The position numbers and the translations under genes are program-made. Of a stretch of DNA of 64,000 nucleotides, positions 4,570 through 47,724 are shown one piece after another; within the stretch, counting starts at the first letter, position 1, and each line of letters opens with the position of its first letter. The notes under the pieces were generated by a model. The model had not been told where the DNA came from. It did no database searches and saw only the letters and a list, made by a program, of their open reading frames with translations. Source of the stretch: Escherichia phage vB_EQ1; sequence record PQ516281. The stretch is one strand, 5' to 3'.

Positions 4570-4598
4570 CTATAACATAGCCCTATCATGGTGTAAAC
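4570..4598 (-). promoter_or_regulatory. early sigma70-type promoter (GTTTAC -35, 17 bp spacer, TTATAG -10)
   Basis: Minus strand GTTTAC-N17-TTATAG upstream of gene at 4288..4551. Confidence 0.55.
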
Positions 4599-4984
4599 TA
4601 CTTTTTAAAAGTTTTTTGTAAAAGTTCAATGATTTCATCGACGTTGGTTTTATCTACAACACAATGAATTTTTGTTACACCCAAATCTATACCTTCGTTA
4701 ACCTGTTGAGGCTTTTCTAATGTTACCTCGGTAAAGTATTTGAATTCTTCAGAATAAATCTCAAAATACGTCTCAAGTGGTCCACCTGCGCTGTATTCAG
4801 TGCCATCTTCCATAGTTACACGTACCACACATTCACCGGCGCAATCGTCACTTTCTATTTCGTTGACAACAAAACTAGGTCCGTGCTTCTCTATTAATTT
4901 TAGCATCATTGCGTTGCAACGACATTCGTTGGCAAAGTCATTTTTAGATAAAGGGTTAATGATGTACGTTTTTCCGACTTCCAT
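4598..4984 (-). CDS. hypothetical protein
   Basis: ORF track 128 aa; early promoter at 5015..5043. Confidence 0.6.
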   Translation of the reverse strand: MEVGKTYIINPLSKNDFANECRCNAMMLKLIEKHGPSFVVNEIESDDCAGECVVRVTMEDGTEYSAGGPLETYFEIYSEEFKYFTEVTLEKPQQVNEGIDLGVTKIHCVVDKTNVDEIIELLQKTFKK

Positions 4985-5014
4985 TTTGATTTCCTCGTTT
5001 GTTTTGATAGGTCT

Positions 5015-5043
5015 ATAATATCATACCTAGAGGAGAAGTAAAC
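5015..5043 (-). promoter_or_regulatory. early promoter GTTTAC-N17-TATTAT
   Basis: Upstream of gene at 4598..4984; shares conserved leader ...GACCTATCAAAAC... Confidence 0.6.
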
Positions 5044-5070
5044 AACTTTTTCGGCAATTTACAGATACTC

Positions 5071-5092
5071 AAAAGGGAGACCGAAGTCTCCC
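5071..5092 (-). terminator. rho-independent terminator after gene 32
   Basis: Minus-strand RNA GGGAGAC-UUCG-GUCUCCC then UUUU. Confidence 0.75.
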
Positions 5093-5098
5093 AATTTA

Positions 5099-5998
5099 TT
5101 ATAGACCAGCTAACAGGTCATCGAGGTCGCCATCGTCAGAAGACGAGGAACTCATGAAGTCATCTTCAGTTTTTGCAGAACCAAAGGCTTCCATGTCTTT
5201 ATCAAAATCATCAAGGTCAGAAGCAACTTTATCTGCAACAGAAGCTGCTGCGGCTGCTGCACCACCAAGAGCGGCAGTACCAAGAACTTGATTAAATTTA
5301 GTATTCAATTCTTCAAACGATTTGAACTTATCTTTAGAAGTCATTTCAGAAAGGTCAACCATTTGTTCGAACAATTCTTTCTGGAAAGATTCATCATCAA
5401 TGTTTGGAATCGCAGATTGATTCAGGAATTTAGATTCGTCGTAGTTACTAAAACCAGAAACTTGTTTAACTTTCAGTACAAAGTTAGCACCTTCCCATGG
5501 GCAAGTTACATCAACAGGAGTTTCACCCATTTCAGTATCGACTGCAATCATTGCATTGATTTTGTCCCAAATCTTTTTACCGAAACGATATTTGAATACT
5601 TTACCTTCATTATCTGGAGCTTGTGGGTCTTTAACAACCAGGATATTAGCCCAATAAGAAGTTTTACGTTTCAGTTGAGAATATTCAGTTTTGTTGGTAT
5701 TGTACAGGTCATTTTTACTAATGTACTGACATACAGGACAAGAGTCATAATCGCCGTGTGTAGATGAACAGGTTTCAATATACCATTTACCATTTTTCTT
5801 GAACCCGTGGTTAACAAGAATTGTAAACGGAAGTGCGTCATCTGTTTTTGCCGGCAGGAAACGAATTACCGCTTGACCATTACCGGATGCATCGAGTTTC
5901 AGCTTCCATTCACCTTTATCTTCTGAAGAGAAACCTTTGTTACCATTCAGTTTAGCCATCTGAGCTGCGAGGTCTGCGGTACTTTTACGTTTAAACAT
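5099..5998 (-). CDS. 32: single-stranded DNA-binding protein gp32
   Basis: 299 aa [25 protein letters not shown]...; zinc-site CxxC region; acidic C-terminus; matches T4 gp32. Confidence 0.97.
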
Positions 5999-6070
5999 TT
6001 TATTTGCCTTTATTTAGATTATTAATTAAATTTTACAGTTGGTTGCTACGACACTTATACCTCGTAGCTG
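5999..6070 (-). promoter_or_regulatory. gene 32 leader: putative autoregulatory translational operator (stem-loop plus AU-rich tract)
   Basis: Inverted repeat GCTACGA...TCGTAGC at about 6044..6067 followed on the mRNA by UAAAAUUUAAUUAAUAAUCUAAAUAAAGG before the AUG; T4 gp32 autoregulates via a comparable leader. Confidence 0.5.
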
Positions 6071-6078
6071 GTATGTTT

Positions 6079-6086
6079 TATTTATA
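6079..6086 (-). promoter_or_regulatory. late promoter TATAAATA (minus strand) upstream of gene 32
   Basis: Plus strand TATTTATA = minus TATAAATA about 80 nt upstream of gene 32 ATG. Confidence 0.6.
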
Positions 6087-6115
6087 CGGTAATTCTAACA
6101 CAGATAAAATAAAGC

Positions 6116-46083: not shown

Positions 46084-46086
46084 CAA

Positions 46087-46455
46087 TTAGTTAAATTTGT
46101 TTAAACGTTCAATACACTGGATGTAGTTATTCGCGATTTGTTTCTGGGTAGGCTCTTTACCGGTTGTTTCAACATAGCGAATGAATGCGATTTCAGTAGC
46201 CTGTAGACAATGTTCTTTAACGCGTTGTTCTTTTGACAATGCTACAGTATCAGAGTCACGATAACGTTGAGCATGAGCATCAGCTTGAATCATTCGATTA
46301 CCTACAGTAACTGGGTCTTCCACTTCAACTTTAGGTTGGTCATACTGTTTAACATTTGGATTGTAAATCAGTTGGCCAACGTTATTAGGGATAAAGCCAT
46401 GGGCACCACATCCGGTTAATCCGAATACCATTGCTAAAGCGATTAATTTTTTCAT
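46087..46455 (-). CDS. putative lipoprotein
   Basis: 122 aa; signal peptide MKKLIALAMVFGLTGC with lipobox LTGC. Confidence 0.65.
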   Translation of the reverse strand: MKKLIALAMVFGLTGCGAHGFIPNNVGQLIYNPNVKQYDQPKVEVEDPVTVGNRMIQADAHAQRYRDSDTVALSKEQRVKEHCLQATEIAFIRYVETTGKEPTQKQIANNYIQCIERLNKFN

Positions 46456-46515
46456 TTCAATTTCCTCTGTAGTTGATAGAAAGATAGTAACACAGTATGT
46501 GGGGCTTGTAAACAG

Positions 46516-46728
46516 CTATTTTAAACTTTTGCGAAATTTGCGTTTTTCTTGACGAATTTGTCGTTTAGTCGGACGTACAGCAAATTTAACGAAGTCCACT
46601 TTGCCGTGTGGAAACTTTTCAGATGCTTCACAGTCCATCATTAGTTCCCATCCTTCTAGAATAAGAGCTTTCCATTGTGTAGTTGATGCAAATTCGTATG
46701 TTGATGGTTTAAACACAGTTGAATACAT
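46516..46728 (-). CDS. hypothetical protein
   Basis: ORF track 46516..46773; internal ATG at 46728 with GAGGAT SD. Confidence 0.5.
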   Translation of the reverse strand: MYSTVFKPSTYEFASTTQWKALILEGWELMMDCEASEKFPHGKVDFVKFAVRPTKRQIRQEKRKFRKSLK

Positions 46729-46729
46729 A

Positions 46730-46921
46730 TTATCCTCTGAAATCAGCTTCGAAAACTTTCTCGTCATTAACAAATGCTTTAACTAATGCTTTGTTCACTT
46801 CAGCAAGTTGTACCGTAACCCACTCGATTTCTTCGCGATCACCTGATAACATGATATCTTTAGTGAACATCTCACCGCTTTTAAACCAACCGATAAAAGT
46901 AACTTTAGTTAATTTGCTCAT
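46730..46921 (-). CDS. dmd: Dmd, discriminator of mRNA degradation (antitoxin-like)
   Basis: ORF track 46730..46942; ATG at 46921 gives 63 aa MSKLTKVTFIGWFKSGEMFTKDIM...AEVNKALVKAFVNDEKVFEADFRG, matching T4 Dmd. Confidence 0.85.
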   Translation of the reverse strand: MSKLTKVTFIGWFKSGEMFTKDIMLSGDREEIEWVTVQLAEVNKALVKAFVNDEKVFEADFRG

Positions 46922-47235
46922 ATTTCCTCGCAAAATGCCCATTCAGCGTGATAAACTGTAGCACCTTTAGTATCATTCATTTGAACTACATCTACCGGAG
47001 AAATTACTCGATAGAGACGTGGTTCACCTCCATAAGAGCGTGCAGCTCGTCCTGCATAAATCTTTGCTAAACCGATATCTTCAGTAAAGAATACACGATC
47101 CAAGTTTTTCTTACGTCCAGTTTCAGACAGAACTCCTGTTTCCTCAGGAGGACAAAGCATGTTTTCGATGTTAGCTGAACTACTTGAACCGTGATAAAAA
47201 ATCTTAAATTCTGCTTTACAATCGATGGTTTTCAT
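46918..47235 (-). CDS. hypothetical protein
   Basis: ORF track 105 aa; early promoter at 47262..47290. Confidence 0.55.
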   Translation of the reverse strand: MKTIDCKAEFKIFYHGSSSSANIENMLCPPEETGVLSETGRKKNLDRVFFTEDIGLAKIYAGRAARSYGGEPRLYRVISPVDVVQMNDTKGATVYHAEWAFCEEI

Positions 47236-47261
47236 TTTGTTCTCCAGTAGTTGATAGGTCT

Positions 47262-47290
47262 ATAATAACACAACTACTGGAGAAGTAAAC
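47262..47290 (-). promoter_or_regulatory. early promoter GTTTAC-N17-TATTAT
   Basis: Upstream of gene at 46918..47235. Confidence 0.55.
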
Positions 47291-47665
47291 TTAAAAACGT
47301 AATTTAGATATATCTGCGTTGATTTCGTTTTGGTTCGCGTCATATGCAATTAAACGAACCGCTTTAGATGGGTCATTCAATGCATAGAAATGATGGAACA
47401 TTGCTCGAACGATATCACCATTTACGAGTTCTACCTGGATAGGAGAACCTTTTTCGAGTTGGAAATGTTCATAAGCTTTGATGGTTCGCAGATAATCAAG
47501 TTTTTGATTTCCAGCTCCAACTATTTGTACGATACGTTTGCCCATGTTTTCCATACGAGATACAATAGTTTTAGGAGCAAGAATAACGTAGGTTGCCAGC
47601 GGAGAAACTACTTCAACAGTTGTGTTTTCGGTGATTGCAGTAAAAATTGCTTGAGACATATTCAT
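47291..47665 (-). CDS. hypothetical protein
   Basis: ORF track 124 aa; early promoter at 47695..47724. Confidence 0.55.
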   Translation of the reverse strand: MNMSQAIFTAITENTTVEVVSPLATYVILAPKTIVSRMENMGKRIVQIVGAGNQKLDYLRTIKAYEHFQLEKGSPIQVELVNGDIVRAMFHHFYALNDPSKAVRLIAYDANQNEINADISKLRF

Positions 47666-47694
47666 AATGTTTTCCTCTTGGTTTGTGTAAGTAC

Positions 47695-47724
47695 ATCATA
47701 TCATGCCTAGAGGAAGATGTAAAC
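47695..47724 (-). promoter_or_regulatory. early promoter GTTTAC-N18-TATGAT
   Basis: Upstream of gene at 47291..47665. Confidence 0.55.

Follow-up and report, generated by a model that had tools for sequence, protein, structure and literature searches.

Repeated early-promoter cassettes of an RB69-like T-even phage and their probable use as recombination crossover points

Work on the early promoters of coliphage T4 reportedly goes back to older primary studies by Liebig and Rueger in 1989 and by Wilkens and Rueger. These promoters combine UP, -35, TGn and -10 elements (Hinton 2010, PMC2988021), and 58 early promoters (Pe) with a preference for C at -3 to -1 have been predicted in the related phage RB69 (Nolan et al. 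2006, PMC1524935, additional file 3). Promoter-early stem-loops (PeSLs) were described in RB49 and phi1, where mini-circles between neighbouring PeSL cassettes were shown experimentally (Arbiol et al. 2010, PMC2839356), and subsequently in PST/T4, where they follow the consensus TTTACW-N17-TAYWAT, and in nt-1/KVP40 (Comeau et al. 2014, PMC4122927). Here we analysed a 64,000-nucleotide stretch of Escherichia phage vB_EQ1 (record PQ516281; hereafter the window), for which an original prediction had proposed a recurrent minus-strand cassette of promoter and conserved leader, GTTTAC-N17/18-TATTAT. We conclude, with a probability of about 0.88, that these cassettes are sigma-70-dependent early promoters of an RB69-like T-even phage that double as recombination crossover points, as in the PeSL model. 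We infer promoter activity and timing from homology with the RB69 and T4 sites. Both the promoter identity and the shuffling role are already known, from the RB69 catalogue of 2006 and the PeSL model of 2010 and 2014.

Early-promoter cassettes in the vB_EQ1 window

The motif search put forward with the original prediction, run on the window as GTTTAC-N17/18-TAYWAT, returned nine exact matches, all on the minus strand, against 0.14 expected, and 0 of 100 shuffles reached nine. The strict consensus is real and enriched but describes these nine copies only, the others carrying variants of the -10 or the -35. A relaxed scan combined with sequence reading gave 19 intergenic copies, each with a Shine-Dalgarno (SD) sequence and an ATG 40-80 nt downstream, and an nhmmer profile built from the 19 recovered all of them together with a further cassette before cef (33791). 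All 20 are minus-strand matches at E ≤ 7e-5 (E = 0.06 for the next nhmmer match), and an unbiased repeat search returned them as the three largest families, D1-D3. At least 15 minus-strand intergenic regions with the same layout had been predicted over 4570-47724; profile and motif enrichment bear this out, with 20 cassettes spanning 4534-47724. The cassettes and two weak sites, located by motif scan or sequence reading and the nhmmer profile, are listed below with RB69 Pe numbers, which are coordinates of Nolan et al. (2006); in the text, cassettes are also cited by their upper coordinate.

47663..47724, minus: cassette 1, GTTTAC-18-TATGAT, leader, SD and ATG of a 124-aa open reading frame (ORF) beside gene 41; RB69 Pe:20971
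47233..47290, minus: cassette 2, GTTTAC-17-TATTAT, before a 105-aa ORF preceding dmd; RB69 Pe:20537
46453..46513, minus: cassette 3, GTTTAC-18-TACTAT, imm.1; RB69 Pe:19761
46023..46083, minus: cassette 4, GTTTAC-18-TATTAT, imm; RB69 Pe:19331
45711..45772, minus: cassette 5, GTTTAC-18-TATAGT, sp (spackle); RB69 Pe:19020
41826..41886, minus: cassette 6, GTTTAC-18-TAAGAT, mrh.2; RB69 Pe:14950; intrinsic terminator upstream at 41905-41926
40347..40405, minus: cassette 7, GTTTAC-17-TATGAT, modB; RB69 Pe:13466
39708..39768, minus: cassette 8, GTGTAC-18-TACTAT, modA; RB69 Pe:12829
38946..39027, minus: cassette 9, GTGTAC-17-TATTAT, srd; RB69 Pe:12088
35823..35885, minus: cassette 10, GTTTAC-18-TATAAT, motB.1; RB69 Pe:8947
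34313..34370, minus: cassette 11, GTTTAC-17-TATTAT, motB.2; RB69 Pe:7443, sequence-checked
33731..33791, minus: cassette 12, ATGTAC-18-TACTAT (degenerate -35), cef; E 1e-6; RB69 Pe:6863, sequence-checked
25085..25143, minus: cassette 13, GTTTAC-18-TATAGT, 87-aa ORF; RB69 Pe:165795
24571..24631, minus: cassette 14, GTTTAC-18-TATAGT, ndd.1; RB69 Pe:165283
21993..22063, minus: cassette 15, GTTTAC-17-TAGTAT, 71-aa ORF; upstream copy of a near-identical pair; no RB69 counterpart
21674..21742, minus: cassette 16, GTTTAC-17-TATTAT, motA; downstream copy of the near-identical pair; RB69 Pe:162713
19180..19246, minus: cassette 17, GTTTAC-18-TACTAT, asiA; RB69 Pe:160217
8274..8338, minus: cassette 18, GTTTAC-18-TACTAT, rnh; RB69 Pe:149309
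4982..5043, minus: cassette 19, GTTTAC-17-TATTAT, frd.2; RB69 Pe:146013; terminator at 5071-5092
4534..4598, minus: cassette 20, GTTTAC-18-TATAGT, frd.1; RB69 Pe:145300
24294..24370, minus: weak site before ndd, TTGTAC-18-TATAAT (agagTATAAT); under the profile threshold; position equals RB69 Pe:165022
35266..35327, minus: weak site before motB, TGTACA-17-TATAAT; nhmmer E = 4.8; RB69 Pe:8387, which scored 6.2

The -35 is exactly GTTTAC in 17 of the 20 cassettes (GTGTAC in two and ATGTAC in the remaining one) and is spaced 17 ± 1 bp from a TAnnnT -10 in all 20, variants of the -10 including TATAGT (four), TATGAT (two), TAAGAT, TAGTAT and TATAAT. Column by column, the conserved elements are an A-rich stretch at about -40 to -45, GTTTAC, TGn, TAttAT and Ag.CcTATCaAa; A reaches 65-75% at -41, -39, -38 and -37, resembling an UP element, and TGn directly precedes the -10 in 17 cassettes. 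The conserved leader that had also been predicted was recovered: CCTATCAA has eight occurrences (1.9 expected), every one of them on the minus strand just past a -10, and TATC was found in 17-19 of the 20 cassettes. A search of the window against Rfam gave no matches at gathering thresholds, so the leaders are not a catalogued RNA family; tRNAs were looked for as well, and none were found.

That the cassettes are phage early promoters, as originally proposed, is supported by their T4-type layout, by the early-gene orthologues downstream and by their coincidence with RB69 Pe sites. All 20 are co-oriented with and upstream of orthologues of T4 early genes. None of them falls within the late tail-fibre block or the replication block at 48-64 kb of the window, and none is intragenic or plus-strand. 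RB69 has 21 Pe sites listed in this region, and these positions are occupied by 19 cassettes and the two weak sites. Between cef and the ORF next to gene 41, 13 sites keep an offset of 26927-26944 from RB69, changing to 26752-26753 past one indel, and on the other arm the RB69 spacings of 3296, 10908, 2496 and 512 bp match the window within 1 bp. The '1 bp del' notes of the RB69 list coincide with cassettes having 17-bp spacers, and the two RB69 sites that we aligned to the window (Pe:7443 and Pe:6863) were nearly base-for-base identical to it. Both weak sites have a TGTACA-type -35 together with agagTATAAT, and their RB69 counterparts, Pe:165022 and Pe:8387, are low-scoring. The weak ndd site is 261 bp from the ndd.1 site both in the window and in RB69, and GAGAGC and GCTCTC flank its -10. 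The weak motB site is a diverged duplicate of the motB.1 cassette, with 77% identity over 64 nt (repeat family D7).

Comparison with T4 extends the likeness to the -35 GTTTAC, the 17-18 bp spacer, TGn, TAnnnT, the A-rich UP stretch and the cTATCAAC start region, which the T4 early promoters of motA, ndd.4, asiA and others carry in the same form, and to the orthologous genes served (motA, asiA, modA, modB, srd, imm, sp and motB). The two sets differ in genus, the window belonging to Mosigvirus, and in their -10s, which are mostly TATTAT or TATAGT here and TACTAT or TATAAT in T4; the C-rich -3 to -1 is also more marked here, as noted for RB69 by Nolan et al. (2006). Relative to RB69, the window has the extra copy at 22063 and its 71-aa ORF, both without an RB69 counterpart, and, judged by spacing only, it is without a small ORF between RB69 Pe:146013 and frd.2. 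The near-identical pair at 21742 and 22063 contains TGCTTCA and was considered as a pair of MotA-dependent middle promoters; we rejected this reading, since the box lies 7 nt from the -10 and not 11-13.

As early promoters, the cassettes would be fired by host RNA polymerase immediately after infection, and each small early gene or gene pair would receive its own transcript from its own cassette. Each would present the enzyme with an A-rich UP-like stretch, GTTTAC, a 17-18 bp spacer ending in TGn, TAnnnT and a start region C-C-T-A(+1)-TCAA, after which a short leader with a GGAG or GAGG SD would follow.

Recombination at cassettes

Two copies, at 21690..21745 and 22005..22065, had been singled out as almost identical, and we measured 93% identity over 55 nt between 21697-21751 and 22018-22072, with a second common block from the SD to ATGTCTAAA. 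The cassettes at 24589 and 25101 are 80% identical over 60 nt. The near-identical pair brackets a polymorphic unit:

21743..22063, minus: 321-bp presence/absence unit with one cassette and the 71-aa ORF, between the near-identical copies 22063 and 21742

Out of about 152 records at the Mosigvirus level, 75 contain the unit and the others give a two-piece match 320 bp shorter. It is missing from three of the four Mosigvirus relatives compared and, judged by a site spacing 319 bp shorter, from RB69; the Dhakavirus phage dhabil has both copies of the pair with the 71-aa ORF unit. AV115 and HY126 retain a single cassette, whose leader is that of the upstream copy and which runs into motA past ATGTCTAAA; the junction therefore falls within the repeated sequence, in the second common block.

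A survey of the early regions by chained BLAST alignments against four Mosigviruses yielded nine indels, namely two homing-endonuclease insertions, two cassette-bounded indels, one abutting a cassette and four without a cassette. Besides the 321-bp unit, the second cassette-bounded case is an extra 83-aa ORF of AV110 at cassette 19, flanked by the leader repeats ATCAACAAATGAG(A)GGAAA. The abutting indel, at gene 61.4, stops 23 bp short of the cassette 3 -35, on its upstream side. Both homing-endonuclease insertions belong to AV110 and are lacking from the window, with about 1.0 kb in td (2911-2913) and about 0.67 kb between 59 and 33 (6766-6770). AV110 and mobillu also have about 360 bp extra at window positions 42210-42229, with soc.1- and soc.2-like ORFs between soc and 56, at a junction without a cassette. 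HY126 has lost most of modB (window 39802-40306; HY126 locus 36460-36720) between two copies of ACAAA(A)TC, leaving the modB promoter and first codons fused just upstream of the modA promoter.

The cassettes resemble PeSLs in several respects. The PST/T4 consensus is the motif of the original prediction, and both are repeated early-promoter cassettes with stem-loops that end in SD and ATG, cluster in variable early regions and are located at indel boundaries between close relatives. Intrinsic terminator hairpins with a UUCG loop stand upstream of cassettes 47724, 41886, 22063 and 5043; the one near 22063 is GGGAGC-TTCG-GCTCCC at 22089-22104. In PST/T4 the stem-loop is just upstream of the promoter, whereas many span the -10 here; RB49 and phi1 have -10-spanning stem-loops as in the window, but those here are without G-run/C-run stems. 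No PeSLs had been described for Mosigvirus before.

The recombination mechanism is presumed to be homologous. The copies are near-identical over 40-75 bp and all point the same way, and for this reason the very active homologous recombination of the phage would use them as crossovers; a crossover between two copies would delete, insert or swap the intervening gene. Cassettes probably serve as crossover points without being the sole route to indels. Their predicted role as recombination boundaries holds for the two indels whose junctions lie inside repeated cassette sequence, but not for four of the nine, which involve no cassette.

Several points weigh against the combined promoter and crossover reading. 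The catalogued RB69 Pe sites are themselves computational predictions, and a generic sigma-70 consensus scan of the window showed no enrichment (57 matches versus 49 expected), so that the signal rests on the phage-specific consensus. Clearly cassette-bounded indels make up two of the seven that are not homing-endonuclease insertions. The modB deletion of HY126, a candidate for cassette association, was rejected as an 8-bp microhomology deletion inside the gene, and three further indels show no cassette. In one alternative explanation the copies are independent promoters, alike only through selection for tight RNA polymerase binding and without a special part in recombination, and nearby indels are coincidental, every gene boundary being close to one. 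That explanation accommodates the location of most of the positions conserved across the 20 copies in known polymerase contact regions, the wide differences in spacer and leader between most copies, and the four of seven non-homing-endonuclease indels that use no cassette. It does not account for subfamily similarity at positions without known polymerase contact (the 93% and 80% identities over 55 and 60 nt), for two indel junctions placed exactly inside repeated cassette sequence, or for the mini-circles between such cassettes in RB49 and phi1 (PMC2839356), and we regard it as unlikely.

Far less probable still is that the cassettes represent a dispersed small mobile element, resembling a miniature inverted-repeat transposable element or the site of a dedicated recombinase, that carries a promoter by chance. 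The many dispersed copies, one of which travels with the 71-aa ORF, would suit such an element, and a dedicated recombinase was raised as a possibility by Arbiol et al. (2010, PMC2839356). However, the copies have neither terminal inverted repeats nor target-site duplications; all 20 are oriented alike and stand at a fixed distance from the start codon, with none intragenic or on the plus strand; and their positions are syntenic with RB69 and largely also with Dhakavirus, Marfavirus and T4. Early promoters used as crossover points remain our preferred reading.

Hairpins across the -10

In T4 e, soc, 49 and I-TevI, the ribosome binding site is hidden in a hairpin of upstream transcripts and is freed in transcripts started within the hairpin; in the known T4 cases gated in this way the internal promoter is late or middle and the silent RNA is early. 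A further hairpin-hidden ribosome binding site is that of mobE of Aeh1 (PMC3014915). For early promoters, Arbiol et al. (PMC2839356) described stem-loops of RB49 and phi1 between the boxes or overlapping the -10, which they read as terminators or attenuators, and placing a PeSL stem-loop between promoter and lacZ reduced expression (PMC2839356). In the literature that we searched, hairpins that span the -10 or bury the SD are not described for early promoters of T-even phages.

In several cassettes of the window, the spacer that separates the -35 from the -10 is reverse-complementary to the leader, so that the -10 sits at the tip or in the loop of a hairpin. Hairpins of this kind, spanning the -10, reach z ≤ -2.4 in five copies and about -1.8 in another two. 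At cassette 34370 (motB.2) an 18-bp hairpin buries the SD GAGGAG (-23.9 kcal/mol, z -7.3), and at cassette 47290 the spacer TTCTCCAGTAGTTG forms a perfect 14-bp stem with the leader CAACTACTGGAGAA, including the SD (-21.7 kcal/mol, z -5.5). Shorter stems (GGACTAT/ATAGTCC and variants) flank the -10 at 4598, 24631, 25143, 45772 and 33791, with z from -4.7 to -1.3: z is -4.7 at frd.1 (4598, -17.2 kcal/mol), -3.4 at ndd.1 (24631), -1.9 at 25143 and -1.8 at sp (45772, GGACTAT/ATAGTCC), and the cef cassette (33791) has a GGTCTAT/ATAGACC stem round its -10. At modB (40405) the read-through fold pairs the -10 region with the start-codon region (z -2.4). Cassette 1 (47724) has a UUCG-loop hairpin directly upstream, and its spacer CTTCCTCT is complementary to the SD AGAGGAA (z -1.4). 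The SD or AUG falls in the 3' arm at 47290, 34370, 40405 and 47724 and not at most other copies, and six cassettes (46513, 46083, 39768, 39027, 19246 and 8338) have neither an upstream terminator hairpin nor a -10-spanning hairpin. A small palindrome is built into the consensus: TATCA, at the transcription start, is reverse-complementary to TGATA, which runs from the last bases of the spacer into the -10. Even copies lacking a long hairpin thus retain a 5-bp inverted repeat round the -10 (for example 21714-21742 and 5004-5043).

Cognate pairs of spacer and leader are more complementary than non-cognate ones by permutation in the window (p 4e-5), Dhakavirus (p 0.003), T4 (p 3e-4) and a Marfavirus (p 0.001), and over four genera z is below -2 in 27 of 60 cassettes (about 45%). 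Such values occur in 24 of 45 cassettes without an upstream intrinsic terminator and in 3 of 15 otherwise (Fisher p 0.024, with an automatic classification that contains some errors). The SD-burying hairpin of motB.2 is kept in Mosigvirus, Dhakavirus, Tequatrovirus (T4) and Kanagawavirus, with a different stem sequence in each. A search for MotB.2 in IMG/VR gave only three near-identical loci and so yielded no covariation. Reverse-complementary spacers and leaders were also seen at T4 loci L013 (8218, 7215 and 20612) and L002 (8808) and at loci L009 and L014.

The +1, placed from sequence at the A of cTATCAa, 7 nt past the -10, would lie between the hairpin arms; with such a start the gene's own transcript would be without the 5' arm, and the hairpin would form only in read-through RNA. 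Predicted start-region accessibility is 0.46 in read-through and 0.59 in own transcripts (p 0.005, in a comparison without a length-matched control). Sorting minimum-free-energy folds by SD pairing gave no discrimination, weak folds always pairing something. In a comparison aimed at telling RNA-level from DNA-level hairpins, G.U and A.C pairs in the stems number 7 and 0 in T4, 4 and 4 in the window and 19 and 9 in total (p 0.087), an asymmetry clear only in T4, and sense-strand fold energies are lower than antisense when pooled (p 0.04).

These observations raise the tentative possibility that many T-even early promoters lie within gene-specific hairpins with the -10 in the loop that insulate genes from read-through RNA, own transcripts remaining translatable. 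The 3' arm would often hold the SD or start codon; RNA from the gene's own promoter, lacking the 5' arm, would stay translatable, whereas in folded read-through RNA the gene would be silenced, attenuated or coupled to the upstream cistron. The device known from the T4 late genes e, soc and 49 would then be a general rule of early-gene insulation. The likeness to the e, soc, 49 and I-TevI type lies in a promoter within a hairpin whose 3' arm holds the SD or AUG, as at 47290, 34370 and 40405; the internal promoter here is of the early sigma-70 type and not the late, gp55-dependent TATAAATA, and the present cases are read from DNA sequence. CT-rich anti-SD insulator motifs inside bacterial sigma-54 promoters (bioRxiv 10.1101/086108) are a second parallel, in that a pyrimidine-rich promoter stretch (TTCTCC, CTCCTC) is complementary to the downstream SD and would lower read-through translation. 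They differ in promoter class and organisms, and the complementarity here is gene-specific and extends well beyond the SD. The statistics make a case, which we hold as an inference, that hairpins spanning the -10, some of them burying the SD, occur generally and gene-specifically at T-even early promoters; this is the only part of the analysis with some novelty.

The same inverted repeats might instead act as DNA, as cruciforms that hide or expose the promoter or as recombination hot spots. We find this doubtful, although the window stems are almost perfectly Watson-Crick and without strand bias (G.U 4, A.C 4), the -10 hexamer is always at the hairpin tip, and the mechanism of early-promoter shut-off is unknown according to PMC3014915. 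Against it stand the T4 stems, with seven G.U and no A.C pairs, the lower pooled energies of the sense strand, the greater frequency of hairpins where an upstream terminator is missing, which fits the handling of incoming transcripts, and the effect of a PeSL stem-loop on lacZ expression (PMC2839356).

Genomic setting and meaning

Over a 6-kb stretch the window matches Escherichia phage MRostami-2023e (OQ031495, an unannotated record) at 100% identity, and this stretch is 97-98% identical to many Mosigvirus (RB69-like) coliphages. We took the gene order from the annotated relatives AV110, mar005P1, HY126 and mobillu:

Minus strand: early genes nrdA-td-frd-32-59-33-dsbA-rnh
8380-18909, plus strand: late block, genes 34-38 and t (tail fibre)
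Minus strand: second early run, asiA, motA, 52, ndd, denB, rIIB/A, 39, cef, motB, dexA, dda, srd, modA/B, mrh, soc, 56, 61, sp, imm and dmd to 41
Reaching 64 kb: replication cluster

Within the late block, gene 37 has tandem 27-nt repeats coding for His-rich boxes (17472-17579) and gene 34 has dispersed 44-47 nt repeats (9658-10655); the 14.7-16.9 kb portion of gene 37 is the stretch most divergent from the relatives.

As a motif, the cassette is a rediscovery of textbook T4 biology and of the published PeSL model. For a genome record without annotation, its value lies in 20 early promoters, 2 weak ones and 1 polymorphic gene cassette, and for Mosigvirus it supplies a clear case of a gene gained or lost between cassette boundaries. 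If the promoter-spanning hairpins act on read-through RNA, they would explain how dense early genes with tandem strong promoters are expressed independently, and would give the PeSL stem-loop a function.

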